Notes under the pieces: generated by a model
Database searches by the model: none
What the model was told of the DNA's origin: nothing
Seen by the model: only the letters and a program-made list of their open reading frames with translations
Position numbers and translations under genes: made by a program
In this document: positions 18,493-34,952 of the stretch, piece by piece
Numbering within the stretch: the stretch's first letter is position 1
Layout of the letters: each line of letters starts with the position of its first letter
Source: Pseudobdellovibrionaceae bacterium
GTDB lineage: Bacteria > Bdellovibrionota > Bdellovibrionia > Bdellovibrionales > UBA1609
Direction of reading: 5' to 3'
DNA: 64,000 nt
NCBI GenBank assembly: GCA_025354795.1
Contig: JANXMF010000075.1
Span: 3,161 to 67,160, forward strand

Positions 18493-19953
18493 ATGCGGGA
18501 CGAGCCAAAACGCGCAGTAGGCGCCAATATTTTCCTAAAACCTCGACAAGTCGAGATCGAAGCGCGCCTTGGTAAGCGGGTCGACATTCGCGAAAATGAC
18601 GGGGTTACGGCCGAGATCTTACACGGCGGGACGTTTGTGCCGGTGCGAGTTTGGGATCTGACAACTTCGGGTGCTTGTGTTGTCACCCGCGAAAGCCTTA
18701 ATTTTAAAATGGGCGACTCGGTCCAGATGCGTATCTGTTTTTTGACCGGCCAGATGGTGACTTCAGATTATCGTATTTGCTGGGTGAAGGATCGCGCCAG
18801 TGGTCAAAAGGTGGGCTTGAAAATGTTGGCGGATCAGGGCGGTGAACGGCCACTGCCGGAAGCACAAGACAACATGCTGCGACTGACCTCCAGCTATCCT
18901 ATTAGCGGTTACATTTACAATCACGTGAACTACCAGGAGCGATCAATTTTCAGGCTGGTCGCCATATCCGCGGGCAAAATCATCCTTGATGTTTTAGACC
19001 GGGAACATTTGTTTTTCCCTCAGCAAACCATTGAATTGCATTTTTCATTGCAAACGTCGTCGTCCGAAACGCTTTTTGGCAAGATCGCCCGCGTTTTGCA
19101 AGTGAAACGCGATTCGGTTCGCTTGCTGATCGAGGTACCAGGCGAGGTTCTGTCGAAGCGGCTCGAGCGCGACATCATAAATCATTTGATTTTAGATCCT
19201 GGCCTTAACATGGAAAAGATACGCAACGCCGGCTTTAAGATTCGCAATATTGCGAGCGGCTTTCGCTTTAGATTTGTCCGGACCCAAGAGGAATATGAGC
19301 AGGTCCTCAAGCTGCGTTTTGCGGCCTATGAAGCTGCCGGAAAACTGCCTGAAGGCGCAACCTTACACACAGTGATTGCGCCGCTGGATCGGATTAGCCG
19401 CATTCTAATTGCCCTGCATGGAGATAACGTAGTGGCTTCGGTCGCCATGTCGTTTCCTGAAACCGAAGATGTCATTTTGGACACTGAAAAACCGCTGAAG
19501 GGTGGTTACCAAGGCAAGGTCCCGCAAAAGACCGAGATGATTGAAATCGCACGTTTATGTACGGCCCCTGAATATCGGGGTGGTGACCTTCTGCTCCGCA
19601 TGTTCGAACATATTTATCGAATCTTTGCGACTTCAGGGCGTCGCTATTTAATTTCCAGCACCGATAAGAAGCTCTGGCCTATTTATAAGAACCTTGGATT
19701 CAAAAAAGTAGGCCTCTCCTATCCCCATCCTTATTTGGCGGGAATGATTCACGAAGTGATTCTCATTGATTTAACGGTGCCAGTGACCGGAGCTTCAATT
19801 GGATTATTGCGCTGGCATTACTTGTATTCCAAAATGACGGAATTCATGCAACGGCGACAACCGCTGAAGCGCACCGGTGTCGGCCGCCTTCGCTATCTCA
19901 CTTTTCTGGGCGCCTCGAAAGTAATTGGCATTATCGAACGACTGCGGTCCTAA
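18493..19953 (+). CDS. PilZ-domain protein fused to a FeeM-like GNAT-fold N-acyl amino acid synthase domain
   Basis: The N-terminus has a PilZ-like RxxxR (RLGKR) and D-x-(S/T)-x-x-G (DLTTSG), followed by a second degenerate PilZ-like beta-barrel segment. The C-terminus (FRFRFVRTQEEYEQVLKLRFAAYEAAG ... IEIARLCTAPEYRG) resembles the N-acyl amino acid synthase / AHL-synthase-like GNAT fold. Confidence 0.55.
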   Translation: MRDEPKRAVGANIFLKPRQVEIEARLGKRVDIRENDGVTAEILHGGTFVPVRVWDLTTSGACVVTRESLNFKMGDSVQMRICFLTGQMVTSDYRICWVKDRASGQKVGLKMLADQGGERPLPEAQDNMLRLTSSYPISGYIYNHVNYQERSIFRLVAISAGKIILDVLDREHLFFPQQTIELHFSLQTSSSETLFGKIARVLQVKRDSVRLLIEVPGEVLSKRLERDIINHLILDPGLNMEKIRNAGFKIRNIASGFRFRFVRTQEEYEQVLKLRFAAYEAAGKLPEGATLHTVIAPLDRISRILIALHGDNVVASVAMSFPETEDVILDTEKPLKGGYQGKVPQKTEMIEIARLCTAPEYRGGDLLLRMFEHIYRIFATSGRRYLISSTDKKLWPIYKNLGFKKVGLSYPHPYLAGMIHEVILIDLTVPVTGASIGLLRWHYLYSKMTEFMQRRQPLKRTGVGRLRYLTFLGASKVIGIIERLRS

Positions 19954-20609
19954 AAAATCGCTGCGCCGTTTTCAAACGCACCGGCTAACATATTGTAATG
20001 CAGATGACAAGAGCAACGGGTGGCATAAGCCACGTCTTCAAACGTCTTTTCATCCGTCACGAAGTGCTCAATGTATCGATCCATTAATTTATTGTGACCG
20101 ATATCAACGGTGGCGTGTTCTTCAAGGAAGGTCAGTGCCGAATCCGGAATACCCAGCGATTTCAAGCGATCAATATGAACTCGTCCCTGTTGTGTTGGTA
20201 AAAACTCAAGGTGAAAAAGGTATCCTAGATATGAAACCGGCGTGCCCAGCTGAATCTGCATCAGTGCGAAGGCATTGAACGCCGCAGTGGACGGCAAGGG
20301 CCGCGTGTGCTGAAGCTTTTCAGTGTTTTCGCCAAGGGATTTTAAGTCATTTAGGGCAAGAAGGTCGTGGCCAATTTCTGAAATAGCATGCCGATAAAAC
20401 ATGCCGATCATGTCGCGAGGATTATCCTTGAAATACAGTGTCGCAAACGCTTGAATTTGCGGATTCAAGCCGGCGTGATGATAAGTCTCTAGTAAGAACC
20501 CTTTATAATGATTAATTTGAAAGTCGCCCGACTGAAGACGAGTCATCCACGGGAATTTATTCACTTTTGCCATCTCATCTCGCCAAACGTTGAGCAGTCG
20601 ATCTTTCAT
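19950..20609 (-). CDS. heme-oxygenase-like fold di-iron enzyme (CADD/PqqC/UndA-like 'iron-containing redox enzyme')
   Basis: It is an all-helical 219-aa protein with carboxylate/His motifs spaced as in HDO enzymes: LLETYHH, ISEIGH (ExxH), HLEF and TVDIGH (DxxH). Confidence 0.5.
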   Translation of the reverse strand: MKDRLLNVWRDEMAKVNKFPWMTRLQSGDFQINHYKGFLLETYHHAGLNPQIQAFATLYFKDNPRDMIGMFYRHAISEIGHDLLALNDLKSLGENTEKLQHTRPLPSTAAFNAFALMQIQLGTPVSYLGYLFHLEFLPTQQGRVHIDRLKSLGIPDSALTFLEEHATVDIGHNKLMDRYIEHFVTDEKTFEDVAYATRCSCHLHYNMLAGAFENGAAIF

Positions 20610-20743
20610 ATAGTTCTCCGAAGGATGATGAACATACTATAGCTATAACCGATCGCTCGACTAGGCGCAATATTAATGCGCCCTGGACTCCTATAAACAT
20701 TCATAATTTATAGAAAATTCCGAAAAGTATTCTATGAGGGTAC

Positions 20744-22918
20744 ATGTTTGATCCGCGCTTGACTAGACCACATTATAAGACCGTGATCTTCGCCTCCTAT
20801 TTGGAGCTCCTATCTAAAAATCGTCCAGAGATAAACGTAAATATTTTAGTAGAGAAAGCTGGATTGTCGCTTGAGTATGTACGCGACGAAAACAATTGGG
20901 TTTCGGTGACTTTCGAAAAGCGGATCATGGATCTCATCATTGAACAGACAGGCGATCCGAACATTTTTTTTGCAGCCGGCGAGCAAGGCGTCTCCCGCAC
21001 CGGCCTCGGTGAAGGACTCCATTTCCTCGCGTCAAACTTCATTCCCCTCGATGCCATTTACCGCAGTTTGCCTAAACTGACGGGTTTGCTGAACAAGGTC
21101 ATCTCGGTCGAAATCACTGAACGTCGTAGCGGCCACTTTAAATTCTTGTTTAAACCCAAGCTTGACGAACTTGACACGGAGGAACGCGAAATCCTGGTTT
21201 CGCGCATGCCATATGTCATGGCGAACACCATGGGTTATTATAGCAAAATTCCAACCCTCAAGCGTTTGCCGCCGGCCCAAACTACGGTGACCCAAGTGGA
21301 TGCCGAATTAGGAAGCTACTCCCTAGAACTTAGCTTTTTTGAAGGCACGCTCTGGGTGGCTCCTGCTCTAAAAACACTTCCCATTCTGTCTTTTTTTGGC
21401 TTAGTTTGGGGTATGCTCGAGTGGGCGAGATTTCCAATCGAAATCTCCCTATTGGCCGCGGCTTCAGCCGTAACCATGGCGATCGCGTTTTACTTCTCTT
21501 ACCAAAATAGAAAGCTTCGCGGTGTCGCGGCACAATCCGAGCAGTCACTTTATCGCCTGGACATTCAAAATAAGGATCTCTATGACGCAAAATTAAAATT
21601 GAAACGCAAACTCGATGAGTCCTTGGCGACTTTCGAGCTTGTGACTCACATGATTTCAGCGACTCTTGAAGAGGAAGTCCTCGAGTTTGGCTGCGAGTGT
21701 TTGGTCAACAATTTGAAATATGATCGGGCATTTGTCCTAATTTACGACTCGCAGGCCAACTGCCTCCGCTTGGCGGCGTCCAAGGGTCTTTCGGATCAAC
21801 TCAAAGCCGGTATGGAAAAACTCGTGCTTCCGGTTGAGATCGATGACTCGGATCCCACCAAGTTCTCCAACGTTTTTCGCATGAAACAGCCGCTTCTTGT
21901 TAAGGATGTCACCGAACACATGAGCCGGCTGGCCGATCCGACCAGTTTGATGGTTCTCAAAGTATCGGGGTCGCGATCGTTCGTGGCCGCGCCGCTTTTT
22001 ACTCAAAACAAGTCACTCGGTATTCTGGTCGCCGACTGCATCTCCAAGCAGAAAGTTATGACTGAAGATGACTTGCGCCTGATTTCAACAGCGGCTCAAC
22101 AGATAGCGATTGGCATTGAGCAACAGCGTTCCAAGCAAGAACTGATCGATGGGTATCAGAAGGAGCTCGAGCTCTCCGAGTCCTACTCACGCTTTGTTCC
22201 CTTTGAGACACTGGAGCTCCTCAAATACAAAAACATTGTTGACGTTAAGATCGGCGACTATGTTGAAACCCATGTCGCGATCATGTTTAGCGATATCCGC
22301 GGATTTACCACACTTTGCGAGACGATGACCCCCGCGGACATTCTCAAGTTTCTGAATTCTTATTACGCCCGGCTCTCACCGGTCATAAAAAGCCATGGCG
22401 GGACGATTGATAAATTTATGGGCGATGGAATCATGGCCATTTTTAGCAAGGCCGACCAAGCGCTGGCGGCCGCAGTGGACATGCAGCGCTCAATTTTTAA
22501 GTACAACCTAGATCGTCACGACCCACAGCGGGAGCCAATCCAAGCGGGGATAGGCATTGCTGCCGGGAAAGTGGTGTTTGGTTCACTGGGGACCGACAAG
22601 CGATTGGAGCTTACGGCGATTGCCGATACAGTCAATGTCGCGTCCCGCCTGGATGGTCTTTGTCGCGAAACCGGTCAGACAATCATGATCACCGGCTACA
22701 ATGAAAATACGCTTGGGCAGTTTCCACAGCTAAGCTTTTCTCACCTATTGCCGCTAAAAGTGAAAGGTCGCGCGAGCGACGTTCACGTGATTGCCGTGAA
22801 TGATTTAAATTATTTTTCCGCCGTTGACGAGACCCAATTGTCTCCGGCGCAAAAGGTCTATCTGGCGCGGGAACGAGAGTTTTGGTTGCAACGCCAGAAC
22901 CCCAAGCAAGCGGCTTAA
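20744..22918 (+). CDS. membrane-anchored GAF-domain class III adenylate cyclase
   Basis: It has an N-terminal sensor region, TM helices, a coiled coil and a GAF-like segment. The cyclase domain carries the metal Asp residues (MFSDIRGFT, FMGDGIMAIF), an adenine-specifying Lys (IDKFMGDG) and the TVNVASRL transition-state motif. Confidence 0.8.
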   Translation: MFDPRLTRPHYKTVIFASYLELLSKNRPEINVNILVEKAGLSLEYVRDENNWVSVTFEKRIMDLIIEQTGDPNIFFAAGEQGVSRTGLGEGLHFLASNFIPLDAIYRSLPKLTGLLNKVISVEITERRSGHFKFLFKPKLDELDTEEREILVSRMPYVMANTMGYYSKIPTLKRLPPAQTTVTQVDAELGSYSLELSFFEGTLWVAPALKTLPILSFFGLVWGMLEWARFPIEISLLAAASAVTMAIAFYFSYQNRKLRGVAAQSEQSLYRLDIQNKDLYDAKLKLKRKLDESLATFELVTHMISATLEEEVLEFGCECLVNNLKYDRAFVLIYDSQANCLRLAASKGLSDQLKAGMEKLVLPVEIDDSDPTKFSNVFRMKQPLLVKDVTEHMSRLADPTSLMVLKVSGSRSFVAAPLFTQNKSLGILVADCISKQKVMTEDDLRLISTAAQQIAIGIEQQRSKQELIDGYQKELELSESYSRFVPFETLELLKYKNIVDVKIGDYVETHVAIMFSDIRGFTTLCETMTPADILKFLNSYYARLSPVIKSHGGTIDKFMGDGIMAIFSKADQALAAAVDMQRSIFKYNLDRHDPQREPIQAGIGIAAGKVVFGSLGTDKRLELTAIADTVNVASRLDGLCRETGQTIMITGYNENTLGQFPQLSFSHLLPLKVKGRASDVHVIAVNDLNYFSAVDETQLSPAQKVYLAREREFWLQRQNPKQAA

Positions 22919-23052
22919 AACTGCTCAATACTCACCGCGCCCGAGAAGCACCGCAGGTTTGCGACCGACGACGCCACTGCGCTGCTGCAGGTGGAGCGGG
23001 GTCCCAAGGAACGCGATTGGCTCAATACGTGGTTCATGACTCGTTAACGAGC

Positions 23053-23165
23053 CTGTCTGCCAGTTTCTTGGGGACTCGGGCTCCTGCCCTTGCCGCCATC
23101 GGCCCTTCGCGCCGAACGCATCACGCTTGGCGGAAGTCCCCAAAAATCTGGCAGATAGGCCCTAG
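23053..23165 (+). repeat. 113-bp palindromic MITE/REP-like element (24-nt imperfect terminal inverted repeats around a structured core)
   Basis: The arm at 23053-23076 pairs with the arm at 23135-23158 at 22 of 24 positions, including one G:U that pairs only on the plus strand. The core has small hairpins GGGC-UCCU-GCCC and UCGGC-CCUUCGC-GCCGA. The left half is duplicated at 18341-18384. Confidence 0.75.
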
Positions 23166-23293
23166 TGTAGGTCAATAGATATTCATGAGCGGATGAAAGC
23201 GTTTGCGTGCGGCATCAATTCACATCTATTGGTCGATCTTTCAACATTTATCTAGATACGATATTTTTCTAAGTTTTCAACACGGGGGGAAAT

Positions 23294-24391
23294 ATGAAGC
23301 GAAAGATCACGATCGTCCTGGGCCTACTTTTGACTTTGGCGTTTGATGCCGGTGCCACTGAACTAAAACATCTCGGCAGTCCGGCGCAACAACGGCATGC
23401 ACAGGAATGGAACCGCACTCATCCCATGAATTTCAACCTCGAGGCGCTGACTGGTGCACCCGTATTAAAACCATTTAGCGAAGCGGAAACCACCGGCTAC
23501 GTAGCGATTAGTTCCACCGACGCATGGGAATTGGCCGCGATCCGCAGCGCCATCGCTAAAAATCTTCCGCCCGCTACGGTGCTGATCATTTTTGTCAGCG
23601 ACTCCTCCGAAGTGCGGGCGCTTAAGAAACTCTACTCGCCTTACCTCAAAGATGACCAGCTGAAATTTCTGGTGGTTCCGACCACGGGTTCGAGCGACAC
23701 CATCTGGGCGCGCGATTCGCTTCCCTTCCCGGTTTATTTGCAGACCCCCGCAAAGGCGCCCGTAGCGATGGGCTTGGTGGATTCCCTTTATCCGCAAGAT
23801 TTTGAGCCCGACTCGGCTTTCGCGAAAGCCTTCTCGTATCCCATGGTCAGCACCAATCAATACTTCCGCGGCGGCAATTTGCTATTCGATACCGAAGGCA
23901 ACTGCTTCTCGGAAAACGTGAATGAAACGCAAAGACTTTCGGATCCAGAAGGTTACCTCAAAAAATATTTCGGCTGCACTACTGTGACTTTGCTGGAGCA
24001 AGAGGGCGGCATTGGTGATATCGATGAGCGCATTAAATTCTTGACCGGCAAAGACGTTTTGACCGACAACGCCACCTACGCCGGCATTTTAAAAAACAAG
24101 GGCTACACCGTGCACATGATGCCGACCACCGGTAAAGACGGCGAGACCTATATGAATACATTGTTGGTCAACGGCACTATGTTCGTGCCACAAATGGGAA
24201 TCAAACGTGATGCCGACGCCATCAAGGCGTATCAAGATCTTGGTTTTAAAGCCGTGGGCGTGATGACCAAGCAACTCGCCGATCGCGGTGACGGCAATAT
24301 TCACTGTGTGACCATGAATTACCCGCCGGGCGCCTTTCAGGCGAGCGCTCGCGGCGGTGATTTTGTCGATTTCAGTCGCGCGACCCGCTAA
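23294..24391 (+). CDS. secreted agmatine deiminase / peptidyl-arginine deiminase (PAD_porph) family protein
   Basis: It has a signal peptide plus IWARDSLPFPV, FRGGNLLFD and the C-terminal catalytic Cys motif GNIHCVTMN. Confidence 0.7.
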   Translation: MKRKITIVLGLLLTLAFDAGATELKHLGSPAQQRHAQEWNRTHPMNFNLEALTGAPVLKPFSEAETTGYVAISSTDAWELAAIRSAIAKNLPPATVLIIFVSDSSEVRALKKLYSPYLKDDQLKFLVVPTTGSSDTIWARDSLPFPVYLQTPAKAPVAMGLVDSLYPQDFEPDSAFAKAFSYPMVSTNQYFRGGNLLFDTEGNCFSENVNETQRLSDPEGYLKKYFGCTTVTLLEQEGGIGDIDERIKFLTGKDVLTDNATYAGILKNKGYTVHMMPTTGKDGETYMNTLLVNGTMFVPQMGIKRDADAIKAYQDLGFKAVGVMTKQLADRGDGNIHCVTMNYPPGAFQASARGGDFVDFSRATR

Positions 24392-25575
24392 GAGTTCGCG
24401 GGCTGTTCGGCAAGCTGCACTTTTACCGACTTAGAAACGCCACCGCGGATCAGTTCCACTTCCGCGGTCTTGCCAGCCGACAATTGTTCCATGGTTTTAA
24501 ACAAATCATGGGTATTGCGAATCGTTTGCCCGTTGATTTTGCGGATCACATCCAGGGTTTCAATCCCCGCTTTGGCAGCGGGAGTTCCGGCCACGACTTG
24601 CTTCACCAAGACGCCCTCGTCCTCTTTGAGTTTCATATAGGCCACCGCCTCTTCGCTGACTTCGTCAATAGCAATGCCCATCCAGGCGCGGCGCACGTGT
24701 CCATTCTCAATGATCTGATCGATCACAGCCTTAGCGGTATTGCTCGGAATTGCAAAACCAATATTTTGCGCGCGCGGATCCATTGCGCTATTGATTCCAA
24801 TCGCCGCTCCACTCATATTGATCAATGGACCACCTGAGTTGCCGGGATTGATGCCTGCGGAAGTCTGCAAAAAGTCAGAGCGCATGCCTTCGAGATTACG
24901 CCCGATCGCGCTGATGATCCCTTGCGTCACCGTGTGGGTATGGCCATAGGGATTGCCAATCGCCAGTACCCACTCGCCGACTTTGGTTTTTGCACTGTCC
25001 GCGAAAGTGAGAGCTTTCAATCCCTCCCTTTTTTCCACCAGTTTGAGCAAGGCCACATCGGAAATCTCATCAGCGCCGACAATCATAGCCAGGTGGCCCT
25101 TGCCGTCTTCCTCACCGATAAACTTCACCATGATTTCATCGGCTACCTTGCCCGCGAGCCGCACTACATGGGCGTTGGTGGCGATGTAACCATCCGTCGC
25201 GTTGACCACAAAACCCGAACCCAGTGCCTCTTGTTTCATCGCGGGAAGCGAAAATGACGGCCCAAAATACCGTTGCAGCTGCTCTTCAAATCCCGGCGGG
25301 AACCCGCCCCCGCCGCCTCCGGCGCGCATCTTGGTGCCCGATTTGGTATAAATATTGACGACCGTAGGCGAAACTTTTTCCGTCAACGAGATAAACGCCT
25401 GACTCAAGCTGTTGACATCCGCCATTCCGGGAGTGACCACGGGTGGGACATTTTCACTATAAATCGGCGCCGCATCCGAGTGAGCCGGCCATTGCAAATG
25501 TCCGCCGCTAAACAAAAGAACTCCGGCGCCCAGGCCCAAGCCTAAAGTTAAACTGTGTATGAAGTTCTTACGCAT
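24388..25575 (-). CDS. HtrA/DegP-family periplasmic serine protease with PDZ domain
   Basis: It has a trypsin-like catalytic triad context (TNAHV, DVALLK, GNSGGPLIN) and a C-terminal PDZ domain. Confidence 0.85.
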   Translation of the reverse strand: MRKNFIHSLTLGLGLGAGVLLFSGGHLQWPAHSDAAPIYSENVPPVVTPGMADVNSLSQAFISLTEKVSPTVVNIYTKSGTKMRAGGGGGGFPPGFEEQLQRYFGPSFSLPAMKQEALGSGFVVNATDGYIATNAHVVRLAGKVADEIMVKFIGEEDGKGHLAMIVGADEISDVALLKLVEKREGLKALTFADSAKTKVGEWVLAIGNPYGHTHTVTQGIISAIGRNLEGMRSDFLQTSAGINPGNSGGPLINMSGAAIGINSAMDPRAQNIGFAIPSNTAKAVIDQIIENGHVRRAWMGIAIDEVSEEAVAYMKLKEDEGVLVKQVVAGTPAAKAGIETLDVIRKINGQTIRNTHDLFKTMEQLSAGKTAEVELIRGGVSKSVKVQLAEQPANS

Positions 25576-25697
25576 AATAAATCCTCCTGTTAGCCAAGAT
25601 TACGGCAAGGGGATTAAAGCGTTCTTAAGCGAGGATTAAAAAAATTGTTATCGGCTTGGAGGTGGACATCCAGCCGCCACTTTCCTATCCTAAATAA

Positions 25698-26627
25698 ATG
25701 AGAACCTTGGTATTTTTGGCCGTGCTCGGTGGTCTGATTTATTTTATGTATGCGCTTCGGAATGCGCCACCGCCCCAGACGGACACACCCCGCCCGACCA
25801 AAGCCAGGCCCCCAGTCACCGCCAGGCCACCGCCCCCGCCGGCGGCGGTGATGCCCATTCAACCTGGGCCACCGGTGAAAGTGGAAACCTTGCGTCCCAC
25901 CGTACGCGAAGAGCCCCAGGTGGTCACCGAGGCCCAAGCGAAATCTAGAGCCCGCGTCTTGCCCTACCATTTGGTCGACGGCTTGATGGTGGTGCAAGGC
26001 GACCTGGTGGCGGGCGTGCCATTAAAGGCCGATCTTCCCCCCACCGGCCTGGTGGAAATGCTACCGGTCAAACTTTGGCCCCAAGGTAAGGTGCCCTACC
26101 ACATTCAACCCGATGTGGTGCGGCCCGAGCGCGTCGCCCAGGCCGTCGCCTTTTTCGACGGAACGGCCGTGCACTTGGTACCTTATAGTAATGAAGATGA
26201 CGCGATCGTTTTTATCGACGCGAACGGGGAGTGCAAATCCTATGTCGGTAAAGTGGGAGGAAAACAACCTGTGTTTATAGGCGCGGACTGCGGCCCGCGG
26301 GAGATCGCCCACGAAATCATGCACGCCCTTGGTTTTATCCATGAGCAAAACCGCACCGACCGCGACGAAGCGCTGCAAGTGCATTTTGAAAACATTGATG
26401 AACGCTACAAGGACAATTTTGAAAAGCTAAGCCCGGAATTTATGAAGGTGAGCGGTCTGGGCGACTTCGATTTCAAATCACTGATGATATATCCGGCATG
26501 GATGTTCGCCAAAAACGGCCGCTCCACCATGGAACCAAAGAGCCAGGAAAAACTAATTGAGCCCGGGTCCGTGTTAAGCGCGCTGGATCTAGAGCGCCTT
26601 AAAAAAGCCTACGGCGCGAGTCCTTAG
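25698..26627 (+). CDS. astacin-family (M12A) zinc metalloprotease with N-terminal anchor and Pro-rich linker
   Basis: It has the full astacin signature HEIMHALGFIHEQNRTDRD and a Met-turn region (SLMIY). Confidence 0.85.
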   Translation: MRTLVFLAVLGGLIYFMYALRNAPPPQTDTPRPTKARPPVTARPPPPPAAVMPIQPGPPVKVETLRPTVREEPQVVTEAQAKSRARVLPYHLVDGLMVVQGDLVAGVPLKADLPPTGLVEMLPVKLWPQGKVPYHIQPDVVRPERVAQAVAFFDGTAVHLVPYSNEDDAIVFIDANGECKSYVGKVGGKQPVFIGADCGPREIAHEIMHALGFIHEQNRTDRDEALQVHFENIDERYKDNFEKLSPEFMKVSGLGDFDFKSLMIYPAWMFAKNGRSTMEPKSQEKLIEPGSVLSALDLERLKKAYGASP

Positions 26628-26812
26628 GGAGGCGGGCTGGCTTGTACCGCCCGGATTTCTTGAATCTGCGCCTTACTCGTAGCTATTGAAAAATGACCGC
26701 CCCGAAATCGACCTAAAATTAGGCCAGGGACTCCATTTGGCGACATGAGGCCGCTGACGAATACATTGGTATCAAGGACGACGGTTGGCGGGATTGATCT
26801 CAGTGACGCCAC
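26624..26812 (-). pseudogene. truncated PIN-domain toxin (TA-system) remnant
   Basis: VVLDTNVFVSGLMSPNGVPGLIL is the N-terminal acidic-residue motif of PIN-family toxins. The ORF has only 62 codons, against about 130-140 expected, and runs into the astacin gene stop. Confidence 0.45.
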
Positions 26813-26858
26813 TTACCAAGCCGAGCGTATCCAAAATCCTACGATTTCAAAATTGAAG

Positions 26859-27199
26859 TGGTGGCCCCAGACTGACTTGAACAGTCACGTCCTTGCGGAC
26901 ACTGGATTTTCTTACCACTCCGGCTTTCGCCGTCTCTCACTTCGAGAGTTTGTGGTCTGGACTATGCCTTAACCGTTTGTCTTTCGACCGTTAGGTCCCG
27001 CTCGTCTAGTCTCTACACCTTCACTGACATTTTCTCGTCAGAGCTTGGCTCGGCATTAGCAATCTGAAAATTTCAGATAAGCCTCTACCGAATTTGGGCG
27101 GTTCTACGTCCTCAGTTTCCCGAGTCTACGCACTCAAATTTTGTCGGCTTAAAACCGACCGTCTGAGTCCAGCGCGTCTACCAATTCCACCATGGGGCC
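26859..27199 (-). tRNA. tRNA-Leu (inferred anticodon CAA) interrupted by a group I intron; exons 27199-27165 and 26910-26859
   Basis: The acceptor stem pairs perfectly (GGCCCCA/UGGGGCC) and is followed by A73 and an encoded CCA. The D-arm is GUGGAAUUGGUAGACGC and the anticodon stem is CUGGA/UCCAG. The long variable arm is GUCC-GCAA-GGAC and the T-arm is GACUG-UUCAAGU-CAGUC. The joined exons are 87 nt. Confidence 0.9.
26911..27164 (-). ncRNA. group I intron, IC3-like, 254 nt, no internal ORF
   Basis: It contains GCCGAGCCAAGC and GAAGGUGUAGAGACUAGACG, which match the conserved core I recall from the Azoarcus tRNA-Ile intron and the cyanobacterial/plastid trnL introns. The helices I can assign are listed below.
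- P2: CUCGG-GAAA-CUGAG
- P3: CCGC/GCGG
- P4: UUCGGUA/UGCCGAG
- P5: AUCUGAA/UUCAGAU
- P6: CUGAC/GUCAG
- P7: GACUA/UAGUC
- P9: hairpins CUCUC/GAGAG and CGGC-GAAA-GCCG
The intron ends in a terminal G, directly before the 3' exon AAAAUCC. Confidence 0.85.
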
Positions 27200-27339
27200 A
27201 CTTATAAATTTTGAAAGATCAAAGCATCCTGCGCTTAAGATCGGTAGATCCTTCTACCAATCTATTTTCTTTTTCTACCAGTCGTTTTGAATTCAAATTC
27301 AAACCAACCACTTACAGCCCAGGTAAAATGGCGACAGTC

Positions 27340-27378
27340 TTTTGAGTCCAGCGCGTCGACCAATTCCACCAAGAGGCC
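27340..27378 (-). pseudogene. 5' fragment of an intron-less tRNA-Leu(CAA) (positions 1-38 only)
   Basis: GGCCUCUUGGUGGAAUUGGUCGACGCGCUGGACUCAAAA matches the spliced 5' part of the neighbouring tRNA-Leu at 36 of 39 positions. It reads straight through the exon junction (CUC|AAAA) and then loses similarity. I found no matching 3' half. Confidence 0.8.
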
Positions 27379-27738
27379 TTGAAAGAGTGCCTGAGTTAAC
27401 CAAAGTGTAGGCATGGACTCAAGAAAAAGTCGGGGGCACGGTTTAAATAGTAGTTGGTATTTTGTCGGGCGTTTGCGTTTTCTTGGCGGGTGGTACGCTA
27501 CTCTATATATATAAAGCTAGCTTACTGACTTTACCTTTTTACACTCTCTGTCAGAAAGATACACAATAAATGGATGCCCAAGGGCCCCGGCCCATCTACC
27601 TACAAATGACATCAATTTTCCTACAAATTCAGTAAATTACACATGTACTTCCTACACCCCTGGCGGACTCGGCACGTGGCTTGCTTAGGGATCTACCCGT
27701 AACGAATGACTCGTTAACCTTTACCAGAGGGGTAGAAC

Positions 27739-28905
27739 ATGAAGTTCAGTAAATTGGTCGCAATTCTCGCGATCGCAGCATTGGCGGCCAACGCCAACGC
27801 CTACAACGACGGAACACTCCGCCGCTCAGCCACGGTGGCGCAAGCCGATTACGACGCCAACCGTGAAGTCAATATCAACATCAACACCAACGCCAACACC
27901 GCGTCACAAGCGCAGGCAGCGTCGGCTCAGCAGCAAGTGCAACAGCCTGTGCAGCAGCCGATCACGGTGGTGGAAGCGTCGCCGGTTTCGGACTCGCGCG
28001 CTGAGGCTCTGCGCAAAGCCCGCCTCGGAGCCGAAGTGCAGACCGAGCAAAAGATAGTTGAAAAGCTTGAAGACTCGCGCTTGCAAGAAGAGCGTGCGCG
28101 CGCCGATCGTCTTTTTGGCAACAAATTAGACTCACAGCCTCAGGTGGTGCTGGTCCCGGCAAGTGTGCCGCAACCGCCTCCTCCTGTACAACAGGCGCCG
28201 CCCCCGGCTTCCATTGTGCAAGAGAAGAACACACAGGTGACGATTGAAAAAGTGGAAATCATCCAGCCCAAAGAGGAGCGTCGGCATGAACCCGAAGCTC
28301 GCATCACGGCCGCACGTGAACACGAGGATGAGCGCGGTCCGTCTACCCAAAAATACTACGTCTCCGGTTTGCTTGGTAATATGAACTACGCGGCTGGCAA
28401 CGTGAAGAGCAATTACGCAATGGGTTTAGCGGTAGGCACGATCATTGACGAGCGCATCGGCATTGAACTTTCTTACTTACACTCCAGCCACGACGTCGAT
28501 ACTTATTGGGACGACCCGATCTATCGCACGCTCGAGCAAAACGACCTGACCGCCGCCGGCAAATATTACTTGTTGCAGGGACGACTGAAGCCTTATGTCG
28601 GTGCATCTATCTCGTACGTAATGCGTAAGTATCAAGACCGAGTTTATGGCTATCCGTATTCGAACAATTCGACCAATTCCGTCAGCACCAACTCGGTGGA
28701 TTTCGGGCTCTTGGGTGGCGCGGACTTCGAATTGACTGAACGTTTCGCAGTTGGACTCGGCGCGGACTATAACTTCAACGTCATGAGCACCAGCCAGGTT
28801 CGTCGTAGTGACTACTCTTACTACGGTTATAAGCCGGACAACACGACGCCGCTTGAAAAACTTGCTTACTGGACGATCAAGCTCAACGCAAAGTTTATGT
28901 TCTAA
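27739..28905 (+). CDS. outer-membrane beta-barrel protein with Asn/Gln/Pro-rich N-terminal region
   Basis: It has a signal peptide (AIAALAANANA), low-complexity Q/P tracts, and a C-terminal half of alternating amphipathic strands ending in an aromatic residue (KFMF). Confidence 0.65.
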   Translation: MKFSKLVAILAIAALAANANAYNDGTLRRSATVAQADYDANREVNININTNANTASQAQAASAQQQVQQPVQQPITVVEASPVSDSRAEALRKARLGAEVQTEQKIVEKLEDSRLQEERARADRLFGNKLDSQPQVVLVPASVPQPPPPVQQAPPPASIVQEKNTQVTIEKVEIIQPKEERRHEPEARITAAREHEDERGPSTQKYYVSGLLGNMNYAAGNVKSNYAMGLAVGTIIDERIGIELSYLHSSHDVDTYWDDPIYRTLEQNDLTAAGKYYLLQGRLKPYVGASISYVMRKYQDRVYGYPYSNNSTNSVSTNSVDFGLLGGADFELTERFAVGLGADYNFNVMSTSQVRRSDYSYYGYKPDNTTPLEKLAYWTIKLNAKFMF

Positions 28906-28946
28906 ACTGAACTTGGATTTTGTTCCGCCCTCTGGTTCTTAGGGCA

Positions 28947-28978
28947 CCGGACCTTGCTTGCAAGGTCCGGTTTTTTGT
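28947..28978 (+). terminator. rho-independent terminator
   Basis: ccggaccttgc / gcaaggtccgg forms a 9-11 bp stem followed by tttttt, 40 nt after the OMP stop. Confidence 0.8.
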
Positions 28979-29013
28979 TGAATCACCTCGCCATTTTCTG
29001 GCATGATCTGCCT

Positions 29014-29646
29014 ATGCCCACACACATTTTATGCACACTTGTCTTGCTCGCCACCATAGCTCGGGCGGAGCTGATCTCAACCGGCGTTGGCGTCGTGCGT
29101 GGCCGGGTCGTCACTAGCCGCGAAGTGCAAATGCAAAATTTGCTAGAAGCCGTTCTTTACAGTAAGACACCGGTGAAGGAACTTCGGCTTCTGGCTCTCG
29201 ACTCGAAAGCCTTCAGCAAGGCCACCCAAGACAGCCTGTTGGAAACCGTCGTGGCCATGGAAGCGCAAAGCTTCAATGTCATTCAGCTAGGCCCCGGCGA
29301 GGTAAAAGACGCCGAGAAGAAGGCGCTGAAAACACTTAAGAATACCGGGGCATGGAAAACCTTGGAGGTGGCGCCACATGAGCTTGAGGACGGGCTTAAG
29401 CGCAAGCTTCAGGCGAAAAAATTTGTGCAGTTTCGGGCGCAATCCTCGGTGCTGCCGGTGACCGACAGCGAGGCCCAGCGCTATTATAACGAAAATCCGC
29501 TCAAGTTCGACGGTTTGCCGTTTGAAAATTTAAAAGAAAATATTAAGACATTGCTTGGCCGCGCCCAGGTGGACCGCCGCCTGAAGGACTGGTACGACGT
29601 TTTGCTCAACAAGTATCAAGTCAAAAATTTGATTGCGGAGATTTAG
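29014..29646 (+). CDS. hypothetical periplasmic protein (SurA-N-terminal-like chaperone domain?)
   Basis: It has a signal peptide (MPTHILCTLVLLATIARA). I chose the ATG at 29014 because the ORF opening at 28954 lies inside the upstream terminator. The helical sequence is weakly SurA/PpiD-N-like. Confidence 0.4.
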   Translation: MPTHILCTLVLLATIARAELISTGVGVVRGRVVTSREVQMQNLLEAVLYSKTPVKELRLLALDSKAFSKATQDSLLETVVAMEAQSFNVIQLGPGEVKDAEKKALKTLKNTGAWKTLEVAPHELEDGLKRKLQAKKFVQFRAQSSVLPVTDSEAQRYYNENPLKFDGLPFENLKENIKTLLGRAQVDRRLKDWYDVLLNKYQVKNLIAEI

Positions 29647-30119
29647 TGACCGACGATTCTGCGGAAATTGAAGTGCTAACTTTGCGCCATTTGCCTGAAC
29701 TGGCGACGATTATGGAAAAGGTTTATCAGAACGCCACCGGTCCTATCGGCGGAGAGTGGACCCGCGATCTGCTCAAACATGAATTGGGAATCGGCCAGGG
29801 CGTGGGTCTAAAAGTCGACGGTTTTGGGCTCGCCGCCTTCGTGTTGTTTCGCCTTTATGACAAGCATCGCGAAATCACGGTGCTGGCGACTCATCCGGAG
29901 CGTCACCGCCGCGGCGACATGGCGTTTCTTATGTCTTACATGCTCGAACGCAGGTCTCCAAGCGAAGGCATTTGGCTTGAAGTGCATGCGCAAAACAACG
30001 CGGCCTTGGCTCTCTACGAATCTCTAGGCTTCCAGCAGGTGGGACGCCGCACAAAATATTATCGCGATGGCGGCGATGCCGTCCTACTGACTTTGGTGCC
30101 GCAGCCTCCAGCACCCTAA
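29646..30119 (+). CDS. GNAT family N-acetyltransferase (RimI-like)
   Basis: It is a 157-aa GNAT protein with an acetyl-CoA-binding region (RRGDMAFLMSYML, ALALYESLGFQ). Its position upstream of rimP-nusA is typical for rimI-like genes. Confidence 0.55.
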   Translation: MTDDSAEIEVLTLRHLPELATIMEKVYQNATGPIGGEWTRDLLKHELGIGQGVGLKVDGFGLAAFVLFRLYDKHREITVLATHPERHRRGDMAFLMSYMLERRSPSEGIWLEVHAQNNAALALYESLGFQQVGRRTKYYRDGGDAVLLTLVPQPPAP

Positions 30120-30168
30120 GTTATAAAGACTTGCCATCCCTAAGGAAATCCTGTTATTTGTGTTCCCG

Positions 30169-30198
30169 AAAGAGGGCCGAAATGCCCTCTTTTTTTTA
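30169..30198 (+). terminator. rho-independent terminator
   Basis: agagggc-cgaaat-gccctct forms a hairpin followed by an 8-T run. Confidence 0.8.
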
Positions 30199-30220
30199 TC
30201 TATATATAGTTGAACAGGGA

Positions 30221-30724
30221 GTGGAATTGCTGTCCGACAGCCAACTGGTGCAGATTCGCCAATTTGCGGAAGAAGTCGCTGTGCGCGAAGGCTGTTTGTT
30301 ATATGATCTAGAATTCCACGACGGTCCCGCGCGCTCGCTGCGTGTATATATAGATAAAGCCGAAGGCGGCGTGAGCATTGATGACTGCGCCAATGTGTCG
30401 CGTGGATTGAACCTGCGCCTGGACGTTGAAGACGTCATTCCCGGTGGTCGTTACGACTTGGAAGTTTCTTCTCCAGGTCTGGATCGCAAGCTGACCCAAT
30501 TGTGGCATTTTGCGAAGGCGGTCGGCAAGCGCGTGCGTTTGAAGTACTGGAGCGCCGAGCGTGTGACTCAGCCCTATGAGGGCGAGTTGAAGGCAGTGGA
30601 AGAGACGCGATTGAGTTTTGAAAATGCAAAAGGTCCGTTTGATGTGGAATTTGCGAATGTGCAAAAGGCTTGCATCCTGTTGGCTGAGGCCGTGGCAAAA
30701 AAGCCCGGTAATAAGAAGAGGTAA
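30221..30724 (+). CDS. rimP: ribosome maturation factor RimP
   Basis: CLLYDLEF...LRVYIDK...GVSIDDCANVSR...LEVSSPGLDRKL is the RimP signature. The GTG at 30221 follows GGGAG and lies downstream of the terminator. The ORF opening at 30131 spans the terminator and is unlikely. Confidence 0.85.
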   Translation: MELLSDSQLVQIRQFAEEVAVREGCLLYDLEFHDGPARSLRVYIDKAEGGVSIDDCANVSRGLNLRLDVEDVIPGGRYDLEVSSPGLDRKLTQLWHFAKAVGKRVRLKYWSAERVTQPYEGELKAVEETRLSFENAKGPFDVEFANVQKACILLAEAVAKKPGNKKR

Positions 30725-30726
30725 AA

Positions 30727-32142
30727 GTGGCAGAAAATAATATGTTCACCGATTTAGGCCGATTGATTGAGCAACTCGGCAAAGACAAAGGCATCGACCG
30801 TGCGGTGGTGATTGAAGCCATCGAAAATGGCATGGAGCTTGCGGCCCGCAAAAAATTTGGCACCTATCGCGAGATCGAAGCCAAATACAACGAAGAAGTC
30901 GGCGAAGTTGAACTCTTCGAATTCAAAGAAGTGGTGAAAGACGAGGACTTCATCGATGAAGAAGTTGAAATCAAATTGACCGAAGCCTTGGTGCTTGATC
31001 CCGAAGCCCAGCTGAACGACTCCATCGGCCGCAAACTCGAAGGCGGAGACCTCGGCCGCATTGCCGCGCAGACCGCAAAACAAATCATCATGCAAAAAGT
31101 CCGCGAGGCCGAGCGCGATATTATTTTCGCGGAATTCGAGCAGCGCAAAGGCGAAATCGCATCGGGCATCGCCCGCCGGGTGGAACGTGGCGCTATCGTG
31201 GTGGATTTGGGTCGCACCGAGGCTTACATTCCGCCACGCGAACAAATTCCGGGCGAAGTTTACAAACCGGGCGACCGCATACAAGGCTATATCGCTGATG
31301 TGCGTGCTTCATTGCGCGGTCCGCAGATCATCATGTCGCGCGCGGATGAACGTTATCTGATGAAACTTTTTGAAGTGGAGGTTCCTGAAATTTACGATGG
31401 TATTGTGGAAATCGTCGCGGCCGCGCGTGAGCCGGGCCAGCGCGCCAAGATCGCCGTGCGCAGCAAAGATGCCGCGGTCGATCCAGTCGGCGCATGCGTC
31501 GGCATGAAGGGCAGTCGCGTGCAAAACATCGTGCAAGAGTTGCGCGGTGAAAAAATCGATATCGTGAAATACGACGACGACGTCGCGCGCTTTGTTTGTA
31601 ACGCCCTAGCGCCGGCTGAAATCTCTAAAGTGTTTGTCGACGAGGGCAATCGCGAAATGGAAGTGGTCGTGCCCGACACTCAACTTAGTCTTGCGATCGG
31701 CAAAAAAGGCCAGAACGTGCGTCTGGCTGCCAAGCTCACGCACTGGAAGCTCGACATTTTGTCGGAAGCGAACCTGGCTTCCAAAACTGCGCAGGCCATT
31801 TTGAATCTCATGCTCATTCCGGGCATGAACGAAACCATGGCGCAAAATATTTATCAGTCAGGATTCTCTAGCTGCCAAGCGCTAGGCGAAGCCGACGCCG
31901 CGGCCATTATGGCGATCCCGGGTTACGATGAAGAACCGAAAGCACAAAAACTGCTCGATGATGTTCATGCTCTGATTGCCCAATACAAAGCCGAAGGCAA
32001 AAAATTGCCCACGGTTTCCGCTAAAGGTGCGGACATCGGTGCCCCGCGGGCCGCCCAGTCCTCACAAGATGCGAAGAGCCAGGCCGATGCTCGCCTGCGT
32101 GAGGAAATGGCACAGTTAAACGCTAAGAAGGAGATTGAGTGA
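30727..32142 (+). CDS. nusA: transcription termination/antitermination factor NusA
   Basis: It has the NusA N-terminal domain, S1 and KH motifs (GDRIQGYI, ACVGMKGSRVQNIVQEL, AIGKKGQNVRLA). Confidence 0.95.
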   Translation: MAENNMFTDLGRLIEQLGKDKGIDRAVVIEAIENGMELAARKKFGTYREIEAKYNEEVGEVELFEFKEVVKDEDFIDEEVEIKLTEALVLDPEAQLNDSIGRKLEGGDLGRIAAQTAKQIIMQKVREAERDIIFAEFEQRKGEIASGIARRVERGAIVVDLGRTEAYIPPREQIPGEVYKPGDRIQGYIADVRASLRGPQIIMSRADERYLMKLFEVEVPEIYDGIVEIVAAAREPGQRAKIAVRSKDAAVDPVGACVGMKGSRVQNIVQELRGEKIDIVKYDDDVARFVCNALAPAEISKVFVDEGNREMEVVVPDTQLSLAIGKKGQNVRLAAKLTHWKLDILSEANLASKTAQAILNLMLIPGMNETMAQNIYQSGFSSCQALGEADAAAIMAIPGYDEEPKAQKLLDDVHALIAQYKAEGKKLPTVSAKGADIGAPRAAQSSQDAKSQADARLREEMAQLNAKKEIE

Positions 32143-34952
32143 ATCAATTGAAAGTCTTTGAGTTTGCCAAAGAAATTGGCGTCGAAACTTTAGTTCTGAT
32201 GGATAAGATTCGCGAGTGGAAGCTTCCGGTGCGAAGTCATATGGCCACTCTCGACGATCAAATGATGGCGGAAATCAAGACACGCCTGCAGGCGGCGACG
32301 CAAACGGCGGCAGATGACGCCGCCAAGGCGAAAAAGAAAGCCGTGCGCAAGAAAGCTGCGGGTGACACCGAATCCGCTGGCTTGACGGCCTCTGCTAGCA
32401 AAGCCAAAGCGACGAAAAGCACAACTGTGGCCAAGAAAGCGAGCGGCAGCAAAGCCGTAGTTAGCAAAGTGGCCACTAAGCAAACGGCTGTCACCAAGCC
32501 GACCACGGCTAAGACCCAGGCGGCAAAAGTCTTGTCGGAAAAGGCCGCGGCCATTGAAGCTGAATCGGGACCTTCCCTGCAAGCTCGTTCCACGGTGATT
32601 CGCCGTAAGGCCGGCGAAGCTGAAGCCAAGGCGCTTGAAGCTGCCGCTTTAGAAGCCCAAAATGCAGCCGCTGCGGCCGCTGCCGCCGAAAATTCTACTG
32701 AAGAATCTGATCCGACCGTCATAGGCGTTCTAGAGTCCGGTGTTGCGCCCGCGACCGACAGCCCCGAGACTTTGGCGGCGCGAGGGGAAGAGCCCAACCG
32801 GCGCCGCAATATCGTTGGGCGGATGGACCTACGCCGTGTGACGAATATTCAAGGACCGGGCGGAGCGCCAGGAACAGCCGCCTCTCCCGGAAGTCCGCGT
32901 TTGTCACGCACAGCTCCGCGCAATATCCGCACCGGCTTTTATTCCGCTGAGCCAATGGTGACTCCCGATCCGTTTGCGGTCCACACCGGTCGAATCGAGG
33001 TCAAAGACGATAAAAATAAGAAACGCCCAGGTCCTGGGGCTGGCGGCGGCGGCGGCGGCGGCGCGCGCGAAGAAGAAGTTAAGATCTTCACCGCGACTGA
33101 ATTCCGCAAACGCGAAGTGATTTTTCAGCCGAAAAAGAAAAAAGCGATCATGGGCCGTGAGGCCAAGAAGACCCAACTCACCACCCCCGCCGCGCACAAG
33201 CGCGTGGTCAAGGTGAACGGCACTATCACGCTGCAAGTTTTGGCCAACGAGATGGGCCTTAAGGCGCCCGTGCTGATGAAGAAGCTGATGGCTGAAGGTG
33301 TACAGGCCGCGATGAATACGGATCTGGATTTTGACACAGTAGCCTTGATTGCGCCCGAATTTGGCTGGGAAGCGCAAAATGTGCATCGCTCAGTCGCTCA
33401 ATTGATTTCCGCCAGTTCCACCGGCGCCGCCGATGCCGAGCGCGTGCATCGCCCGCCCGTGGTGACGGTGATGGGACACGTCGATCACGGCAAAACAACT
33501 TTACTGGACTCGATTCGCAAAGCGCGCGTGGCGCAAGGTGAAGCCGGAGGCATTACTCAACATATCGGTGCCTATTCGGTGACACTCGATGACGGCCACA
33601 AAGTAACATTCATCGATACTCCCGGCCATGAGGCTTTCACCGCCATGCGTGCGCGTGGTGCGAATGTTACGGATATCGCGATCATCGTGGTCGCGGCTGA
33701 CGACGGCATGATGCCGCAGACCGCAGAAGCCATCAATCACGCCAAAGCGGCGAAGGTGCCAATCATTGTCGCGGTCAATAAAATGGATAAACCGGGGGCT
33801 AATCCCGATCGCATCAAGCAACAGCTCACTGAATTCGAATTGGTTCCTGAGGAATGGGGCGGCACGACGATTTATTGTCCCGTATCGGCCCTCAAAGGCG
33901 ACGGTATCAAAGAGCTTCTCGAGCAAATTATTTTGGTCGCGGAAATTCAAGAGCTTAAAGCCGATCCCAAACGTTCGGCCACGGGCATCGTGATCGAAGC
34001 GCGGATGGAAAAAGGCCGCGGAGTGATCGCTTCGCTGCTAGTTCAAGACGGCACCATCAAAGTGGGACAGACTATTGTGGCAGGTAAGGTTTCAGGCCGG
34101 GTGCGCAGTATGAGCAACGACAAAGGTGTGACTGTCAAAGAAGTTGGCCCCGGACTGCCGGTGGAAATTTTGGGTTTGCCCGAGACACCCATGGCCGGTG
34201 ACCGTTTTGATATTGTGACCGATGAAGTGGCCGCGCGCGAGATCGCCGAACAGCGCATTGGTTTAGTCAAAAAAGACGAGGCACCCAATTCGAAAATGAC
34301 TCTCGATCAGCTTTTCGCCCGAGTTAAATCTGGCGATGCTAAGGAGTTGGCGTTGGTTTTAAAAGCGGACGTGGCCGGCAGCTTAGAGGCGGTCAAAGGC
34401 ATGCTCGACAAGATCGGCAACTCCGAAGTGAAATTGAAACTGGTGCACTCCGCAGTGGGCGGCATTACCGAAACCGATGCGCTGCTAGCCAGTACGGCAA
34501 AGGGCGTGATCGTCGGCTTCAATGTGCGTCCCGATAGCGGCGCCACGCGAATCGCTAAAGAAAAAGGCATTGAAATCAAGACCTACTCGATTATTTACGA
34601 GTTAGTCGATGATCTCAAAAAAGCGCTTACCGGCTTACTCACACCCGAAGTGGTGGAAAAAGCCATGGGCCGCGCCGAAGTTCGCAACACTTTCACCGTG
34701 CCGAAGATGGGCATGATTGCCGGCAGTTTTGTGACCGAAGGCAAGATCGCGCGCAATTATTCATTGCGCTTGGTGCGTGACGGAAAAATTATTTTCGAAG
34801 GCAAAGTGGGCAGTCTCAAACGCTTTAAGGACGACGTCAAAGAAGTTACTTCTGGGTTTGAGTGCGGTATTGGCATCGAAAACTTTAACGACATCAAAGT
34901 GGGCGACGTCATCGAGTCTTTCGTTAAAGAAGAGCAGTTGCGGGAGCTCTAG
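32139..34952 (+). CDS. infB: translation initiation factor IF-2
   Basis: It has the GTPase motifs [20 protein letters not shown] and NKMD, an Ala/Lys-rich N-terminal region, and conserved synteny. Confidence 0.95.

Follow-up and report, generated by a model that had tools for sequence, protein, structure and literature searches.

The window analysed here is the whole 64,000-nucleotide (nt) stretch of contig JANXMF010000075.1 from a Pseudobdellovibrionaceae bacterium, and this report concerns a leucine transfer RNA (tRNA) locus within it. On the minus strand, the 5′ half of an intron-less tRNA-Leu(CAA) is followed by a 140-nt spacer, a complete tRNA-Leu(CAA) gene with a group I intron in it and, finally, a truncated PIN-domain open reading frame (ORF). 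The half tRNA is very probably the left attachment site (attL) scar of a site-specific integration, left by a tRNA-replacing island that has since decayed. The features of the locus, in window coordinates, are as follows:

27378 to 27340, minus strand: tRNA-Leu(CAA) 5′ half, positions 1–38, reading GGCCTCTTGGTGGAATTGGTCGACGCGCTGGACTCAAAA; probable host side of attL
27340 to 27348, minus strand: core GACTCAAAA, 9 base pairs (bp), comprising the last two anticodon-stem bases and the 7-nt anticodon loop
27339 to 27200, minus strand: 140-nt spacer, probable island end (P′ arm of attL), homologous to the spacers of other islands
27280 to 27274, minus strand: TGGTAGA motif 1, putative integrase arm-type site
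27259 to 27253, minus strand: TGGTAGA motif 2, repeated directly 21 nt beyond motif 1; putative integrase arm-type site
27247 to 27242, minus strand: TCTACC, an inverted copy of the motif, giving GGTAGA-N4-TCTACC with motif 2; seen as a plus-strand hairpin in the terminator scan
27199 to 26859, minus strand: complete, apparently island-borne tRNA-Leu(CAA) gene with intron, its coordinates slightly corrected from those first proposed
27199 to 27165, minus strand: 5′ exon, ending CTC at C34, with acceptor strand GGCCCCA
27164 to 26911, minus strand: group I intron of 254 nt, without an ORF, between C34 and A35, Leu.3Cg type
26910 to 26859, minus strand: 3′ exon including the encoded CCA, starting AAAATCCAG, delimited by in-silico exon joining

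The original prediction, made from the sequence alone, described the fragment as positions 1–38 of tRNA-Leu(CAA) with differences in the acceptor stem and at A21, and re-reading of the sequence agreed. The fragment is identical to the in-silico spliced neighbouring tRNA at 36/39 positions, the mismatches being acceptor positions 5 and 7 and an A21C change. A repeat search likewise paired it with the intron-bearing gene (36 nt, 92%, spacing 179). Similarity to tRNA runs to the 3′ edge of the anticodon loop and no further, as had been claimed; the last matching base is A38 (27340) and non-tRNA DNA lies beyond. The junction reads CTCAAAA followed by GACTGTCGCC; no tRNA 3′ half follows and the target tRNA is not regenerated. 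The matching 3′ half had been reported missing nearby, and a search of the whole 64-kb window found neither a native 3′ half nor a second 5′ half. The acceptor strand of the fragment, GGCCTCT, is that of the native tRNA of a close relative (L010). It does not match the pairing in the intron-bearing gene, where GGCCCCA pairs with its own 3′ strand TGGGGCC. The A21C change breaks a conserved tRNA position and is therefore consistent with the fragment being a dead remnant.

The complete gene had been placed some 140 nt downstream of the fragment, and the spacer is exactly 140 nt. ARAGORN found no tRNA in the raw window. However, in-silico removal of the intron (a...g) from between CTC and AAAA gave a canonical 87-nt tRNA-Leu(caa), which ARAGORN accepted. 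Rfam with gathering thresholds returned nothing in the window, and the intron was seen by direct reading and with an E-value threshold (Intron_gpI, RF00028, 30 bits, E 1.8e-5; gathering score 50). Williams used thresholds of 18–20 bits for tRNA introns (bioRxiv 10.1101/2020.01.27.920355), and the window intron scores above these. In an alignment of 19 intron homologues, compensatory double changes were found in 28/70 predicted pairs, located in the P1-loop, P2-like, P5, P6, P8 and P9-like helices. The 5′ splice-site pair of P1 is C-G in the 16 CAA-type homologues and U-G in the 3 UAA-type ones. In the window, C-1 (27165) pairs with 27135 (alignment columns 8 and 46), a Watson-Crick C-G pair rather than the usual U.G wobble. 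Judged by the canonical spliced tRNA and the intron covariation, the replacement gene looks functional.

The locus was compared with 80 loci from Bdellovibrionales/Pseudobdellovibrionaceae genomes, anchored on nusA. The best nusA identity among them was 92%, so the window's own species is not included. To the right of the tRNA, the order outer membrane protein (OMP), SurA-like, rimI, rimP, nusA, infB is conserved in 66–80 loci. An intact intron-less tRNA-Leu(CAA), called by ARAGORN, lies on the strand opposite to nusA in most of the 80 loci (about 60 genomes), about 3.3–3.5 kb from nusA, and the closest relatives (L002–L015) are among these. A conserved anchor lies upstream of the OMP gene, and the tRNA 5′ ends were at these distances from it:

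Native tRNA in L004, L006, L007, L010 and L013: 215–296 nt
Window fragment: 292–293 nt
Window intron-bearing gene: 472 nt

The fragment, unlike the intron-bearing gene, occupies the position of the relatives' native tRNA-Leu(CAA). Comparison of synteny had been proposed along with the original prediction and came out in its favour, as the closest relatives carry a single intron-less tRNA-Leu(CAA) where the window has the fragment. The arrangement of fragment plus gene is not a fixed one: the nearest relatives lack it, and elsewhere it stems from independent insertions. The intron itself is present in only L026, L029, L048 and L075 among the 80 loci, and a search for the conserved intron-core pattern added 16 further metagenome loci. 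Many of these have a half tRNA upstream that stops at the nucleotide where the window fragment does. To the left of the tRNA there is no synteny in any relative, and 0–6 kb of variable DNA precedes a conserved gene pair. Since this flank varies in all relatives, the tRNA is an insertion hotspot.

The spacer belongs to a conserved family of island ends. Its members start GA(C/G)..GGCG and carry, some 55–60 nt on, two direct copies of TGGTAGA and then an inverted copy. Motif 1 falls in one alignment column, at the same offset within each spacer group, in the window, L095, L086, L092 and L089. It is further present in L097, L098, L100, L101, L104, L106, L108 and L109, and the distance from motif 1 to motif 2 is kept at 21–23 nt across the spacers. 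Global alignment of the window spacer with that of L095 scored 35, compared with -2.0 ± 5.0 for 500 shuffles (maximum 12.5), and with that of L098 15.5 (shuffles -6.8 ± 4.8). The TGGTAGA repeats are putative integrase arm-type binding sites, to judge by this conserved layout. A TTGA.A..TAAAAT promoter abuts the island tRNA at most loci of the spacer alignment. A simple promoter scan of the window returned no consensus promoter for the island tRNA, so we infer rather than see one here; presumably it lies within the spacer. The possibility that the spacer is a collapsed copy of the intron was considered separately and ruled out, as its best local alignments with five introns showed no significant similarity (shuffle p 0.11–0.71).

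The same junction recurs in other genomes. CTCAAAA followed by GA.. and an alignable spacer was found in L084, L086, L089, L092, L095, L097, L098, L100, L101, L104, L106, L108 and L109, and tRNA similarity ends at the same nucleotide as in the window in at least 10 other loci. A search of metagenomes with the exact junction pattern gave 0 matches. In L089, L100, L104 and L109 the half upstream of the junction is of the host type, namely the divergent GCTCGGTGATGAAATTGGTAGACTTGCTAGACTCAAAA (GATGAAA..CTAGA), which L066 and L067 have in their native tRNAs. This divergent half is followed by the P′ arm of the family, and in L089 the tRNA is also of the standard intron-bearing type. By its sequence type, the upstream half tracks the tRNA of the host and not that of the island.

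In L026, L086, L089 and L092 the intron-bearing tRNA is directly followed downstream by a PF00589 tyrosine integrase (72–97% mutual identity). The homologue in L095 is 29% identical and in inverted orientation, and a database search yielded 51 integrase homologues. Wherever the contig reaches the chromosomal side (L097–L101, L106), the integrase is at the same OMP-rimI-rimP-nusA-infB locus, and scar, arm and a complete tRNA-Leu all lie in the 600–900 nt gap before it. In the short flank of L108 the adjoining OMP-like gene alone is seen; the contigs of L104, L105, L107 and L109 begin at or just before the island. A complete element-borne tRNA-Leu is also found in L086, L089, L092, L095, L098, L100, L101, L104 and L106–L109, and in full-length copies it lies 140–176 nt inside attL.

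No phage structural genes were found in the 10-kb flanks of L097, L101, L104, L105 and L109, and IMG/VR returned 0 matches for the intron core pattern and 0 for the integrase. Cargo was located at L097:12375-19352, L101:11426-13770, L104:5057-7987, L109:4805-7735, L108:6344-8114 and 919-2360, and L075:4186-5875. It is mostly of defence type: type I restriction-modification with an AAA_13 ATPase, a BpuJI-like nuclease with a C5 methylase, MmeI/Eco57I-like enzymes and AbiEi/AbiEii. With such cargo, the tRNA-Leu site is a defence-island hotspot in this order. L095 has conjugation-like and helix-turn-helix genes, recognised by inspection only. The scars of the window (27355-27361) and L084 both read GGTCGAC where the tRNA has GGTAGAC, so that TGGTAGA is destroyed in the host half. 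The window has no integrase and the integrase reading frame of L084 looks broken; the shared scar may be chance, or may reflect selection against further recombination.

Both ends of an island can be seen in L101, a complete copy of about 9.2 kb with attL at 9334-9371 and the right attachment site (attR) at about 18600-18680. Its attL reads GCCTCGG...CCGGACTCAAAA followed by GAGTTAGGCG, and its attR reads ...TTTTGTCCATAACTGGTAGATACGAGAGACTCAAAA followed by TCCGGTACC...CCGAGGCACCA. Each junction has one tRNA half only, and the two native halves, when joined, form a valid tRNA-Leu(caa) according to ARAGORN. The 9-bp core is present as a direct repeat at the two ends of the island, and GACTCAAAA is the sole block common to attL and attR. 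This same GACTCAAAA at 27340 to 27348 of the window would be the common core and crossover region. The P arm, at the other end of the island from P′, mimics a tRNA: TGGTAGA-N7-GACTCAAAA is common to the bacterial attachment site (attB) and the P arm of the island attachment site (attP). A 5′-truncated intron-less tRNA downstream of the intron-bearing gene in L029 carries the same P arm and is therefore an attR. Immediately past attR in L101 (18658-20340) is a large serine recombinase with Resolvase, Recombinase and Zn_ribbon_recom domains, which suggests a second mobile element stacked at this tRNA locus.

In a sister lineage, represented by high-GC contigs, the same intron family occupies tRNA-Leu(UAA) and the split structure is the same. 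Its attL is found in L082 and L094 and its attR in L096, which overlaps L093 at 99.97% identity, and the rebuilt native gene is a tRNA-Leu(taa) that ARAGORN accepts. The L093/L096 composite, L082 and L094 have an integrase-less insert of about 3.3 kb between the split native tRNA-Leu(UAA) halves, containing the intron-bearing tRNA-Leu(UAA) and two repeat-rich lipoprotein-like genes. At L017:3366-5043, a native 5′ half ending CTCAAAA(T) is followed by a 130-nt spacer and a complete tRNA-Leu(CAA), which has no intron and whose 5′ half is identical. The PF00589 tyrosine integrase of L017 is unrelated to that of the island family, and the next ORF (517 aa) has no Pfam match. Tandem duplication was ruled out for L017, as the sequences upstream of its two halves are unrelated.

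Taken together, these data point to the following course of events. Comparison with the relatives shows that the ancestor had one intron-less tRNA-Leu(CAA) upstream of OMP-rimI-rimP-nusA-infB, and an island of a family common in Bdellovibrionales very probably inserted into its anticodon loop. The integrase crossover would have taken place within the 7-nt loop, and the similarity boundary exactly at the 3′ edge of the loop is as expected for an overlap region flanked by half-sites in the anticodon stem. Because identity between island and target is limited to about 9 bp (GACTCAAAA), such a crossover joins the host 5′ half to island DNA (27339 downward). The host 3′ half would have been displaced to the far end of the island and, as in homologous islands, the native gene would not be rebuilt, leaving both halves dead. 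The island would have brought a complete tRNA-Leu(CAA) just inside its left end, along with three TGGTAGA repeats, and this tRNA, with its own promoter, may compensate for the destroyed host gene. A later deletion, running from within the PIN cargo gene to beyond attR, would have taken the integrase, other cargo and the native 3′ half. The intron-bearing gene would now be the only functional tRNA-Leu(CAA) of the locus, locked in and unable to excise.

Much of this had been anticipated in the original prediction, in which DNA bearing the intron-containing allele entered a resident intron-less tRNA-Leu by recombination at the anticodon loop, a known crossover site for tRNA-targeting integrases, and eroded afterwards. 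Synteny, the conserved island end, the integrase of intact copies and L101 all support this reading. What was taken for the scar of a one-off event is instead the standard design of an island family.

Several observations nevertheless weigh against the window being a decayed island. Neither an integrase nor a remnant of one was found in it (tblastn with three integrases), nor was an attR or P-arm remnant; only the left end is present. With these and the native 3′ half missing, the mechanism at this locus is inferred from homologous islands. The flank downstream of the tRNA is variable in all relatives and sets no boundary for island-derived DNA on that side, and none of the relatives' left-flank genes, which were sought in the window in order to size the insertion, was found. 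A C-1 mutation inactivates the Tetrahymena intron (bioRxiv 10.1101/2020.01.27.920355), which bears on the splicing of an intron with C-1. The last such point is an alignment of the fragment that continues past the exon, pairing CTCAAAAGACTGTCG with CTC, a 3-nt gap and AGACGGTCG.

This alignment, in which the bases downstream of the fragment (AGACTGTCG) match the start of the intron (AGACGGTCG) across the gap, is the sole pointer to a local partial duplication. The fragment would then be the first ~50 nt of the intron-bearing gene with a later insertion of AAA, and would never have been an intron-less gene. However, what follows AAAA is the conserved beginning of the P′ arm (GACTG.., GACAG.., GAGTTAGGCG), also where introns start differently. 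As AGACTGTCG is this conserved arm start and is not tied to the start of the intron elsewhere, the pointer is disposed of. The remaining spacer has no significant similarity to introns (shuffle p 0.1–0.7). Moreover, the acceptor strand of the fragment is unlike that of the neighbouring gene and the same as that of a relative's native tRNA, the upstream half and the island tRNA differ in type in other genomes, and in L101 the 3′ half that matches lies at the island's far end. Duplication is therefore very unlikely.

Another way to reach a broken tRNA beside an intact one is a cut by an intron-linked homing endonuclease, followed by sloppy repair in which the break was illegitimately joined to intron-bearing DNA. 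The breakpoint is indeed only 4 nt from the intron insertion site, and the intron is patchy among relatives. However, the 254-nt intron has no ORF and there is no adjacent endonuclease gene, and proper homing would leave no remnant. In at least 10 independent loci the junction falls on one and the same nucleotide, with the same homologous arm after it, and such uniformity argues for a site-specific recombinase rather than end joining. We regard a break of this kind as highly improbable.

The recurrence of the half tRNA in many genomes could also mean that it is a functional leader RNA, kept as a decoy or as a folding partner for the 3′ exon in the precursor, and the window half could pair with 6/7 bases of the 3′ acceptor strand of the gene. 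There is little chance that this is so. Only the anticodon stem-loop of the half is left in L087 and L093, L085 has a heavily mutated version, and L026, L029, L048, L075, L083 and L091 carry the same intron gene without it. In addition, it follows the host tRNA type and not that of the island, the window half carries A21C, and Rfam has no match there.

The original prediction had offered, as its alternative, a partial retro-copy or gene conversion in which complementary DNA of the spliced tRNA or of its 5′ half was inserted upstream of the gene; the fragment does have the contiguous spliced loop CTCAAAA that the neighbouring gene lacks, but this origin is extremely improbable and is contradicted by synteny and by L101, as the fragment is exactly at the position of the relatives' native gene, its acceptor strand differs from that of the neighbouring gene's product, a conserved repeat-bearing DNA element follows it, integrase genes occur at the homologous loci, and no reverse transcriptase was noticed among the inspected ORFs and genes near the locus (Pfam having been run on few window ORFs only).

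Integration into a tRNA gene by a tyrosine integrase resembles the tRNA-dependent lysogeny of actinobacteriophages (Guerrero-Bustamante and Hatfull, mBio 2024, PMC10865867). There the core is 8–17 bp, the tRNA is left unrestored and lysogeny requires a phage tRNA of the same isotype, examples being Fionnbharth (tRNA-Lys, 10-bp core) and Gaia (tRNA-Leu-CAA, 8-bp core) (PMC10865867). The islands are alike in their 9-bp core (L101), in the splitting of a host gene that is not rebuilt and in the supply of the same tRNA by the element. They differ in occurring in Bdellovibrionales and one high-GC lineage, and in carrying defence cargo, with no phage genes seen. They differ, too, in that the replacement tRNA holds a group I intron in 8/9 integrase-found islands, a count inflated by shared ancestry; the word intron appears once in PMC10865867, in the title of a cited reference. 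The window, moreover, is a decayed remnant and not an active member. The islands thus extend tRNA-dependent integration beyond actinobacteriophages to the defence-gene islands of predatory bacteria.

Anticodon-loop integration is reportedly recognised as a sublocation class by Williams (2002). Canonical tRNA-targeting islands and prophages share with the islands described here the tyrosine integrase, the anticodon-loop crossover and a displaced tRNA fragment that marks the island end. However, islands of the Islander/TIGER type regenerate the target gene (PMC4383910): they carry the 3′ part of the tRNA, restore the gene and leave the displaced 3′ part at the far end. In the islands here there is no regeneration, both halves are dead and a complete, separate gene is supplied.

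Nine distinct islands were found through the integrase, independently of any intron. An anticodon-loop intron is present in 3/9 (L098, L101 and L107, the last of which targets UAA), and a different, unrelated group I intron, in the D-loop, in 5/9 (L100, L104, L106, L108 and L109), where it splits TGGT from AGAC. The remaining island, L097 (1/9), is intron-less with a nearly intact motif. The D-loop intron at L100:9525-9755 scored 50.1 bits in Rfam (E 1e-11), with boundaries GGU, a...g and AGAC, and its spliced product, the sole D-loop case tried, is a valid tRNA according to ARAGORN. Both intron sites (between CTC and AAAA, and between TGGT and AGA) lie inside the two blocks common to attB and the P arm. 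It is possible, though we hold this only tentatively, that the intron is part of the island design, breaking the att sequence and so keeping the replacement tRNA gene from becoming a second attachment site. If so, the intron would guard the gene from self-recombination (with loss of the P′ arm) and from rival islands, and the island would give an endonuclease-less intron transport between genomes, the intron becoming a fixed chromosomal tRNA intron after decay. This suggests a possible DNA-level function for a self-splicing intron, that of an att-site breaker. L097 and L017, the latter with its unrelated integrase, are both intron-less, and the intron is therefore not indispensable.

Introns of the Leu.3Cg type have been catalogued by Williams (bioRxiv 10.1101/2020.01.27.920355), without a link to islands, integrases or split native genes. 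The window intron agrees with this type in its 34/35 site, its C-1 in a Watson-Crick C-G P1 pair and its omega-G, and in occurring in Proteobacteria in the old sense. That catalogue covered anticodon-loop positions only (bioRxiv 10.1101/2020.01.27.920355), so D-loop introns fall outside its scope. The D-loop site may be so far undescribed in bacterial tRNA. [quoted passage not shown] These may be the att halves of such islands, which could then account for a feature that confuses tRNA and island annotation tools. No paper connecting tRNA group I introns with integrative islands came up in a literature search, and a replacement tRNA with a group I intron inside an att-like sequence appears to be new.

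In the collaborative homing of phage systems, an ORF-less group I intron is paired with a free-standing endonuclease that cuts the intron-less allele. The islands are alike in that the intron, which has no mobility gene of its own, moves together with a neighbouring DNA-mobility gene acting on the intron-less target that the intron interrupts. They are unlike in that the partner is a tyrosine integrase inserting a whole island, and the target is destroyed and replaced, not converted. Group I introns of bacterial tRNA genes mostly lack homing endonucleases and are patchy, and whether they spread by lateral transfer or are of ancient inheritance is debated. Integrase-bearing islands are a concrete vehicle for their spread, destroying the host tRNA-Leu and installing an intron-bearing copy. 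The window would be the end state, with a decayed island and the intron-bearing gene remaining as the resident one.

Beyond the tRNA gene lies the following feature:

26812 to 26624, minus strand: truncated PIN-domain ORF of 62 aa (PIN_3, E 2.6e-5, 25.4 bits, cut-off 27)

The ORF spans PIN_3 profile positions 2–51 of 115 and is not full-length, and its stop overlaps that of the convergent astacin gene (25698 to 26627). There is no antitoxin ORF next to it; the PIN start codon (26812) and the tRNA 3′ end (26859) are only 46 nt apart, without an ORF between them. No homologue was found in the 80 nusA-anchored loci (L081–L109 being outside that search). The toxin-antitoxin module envisaged in the original prediction thus reduces to a truncated PIN fragment, real if weak, that meets the astacin stop and has no antitoxin beside it. 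The ORF may be left-over island cargo, in which case its end would mark the cut-off of the recognisable foreign segment at the astacin gene. An exact look-up of the astacin protein returned no record. Elsewhere in the window, positions 23051-23160 hold an inverted repeat of 26 nt whose arms are 88% complementary and separated by 58 nt. It is intergenic, upstream of a peptidyl-arginine-deiminase-like gene, and is the longest inverted repeat within window positions 20000-34000.

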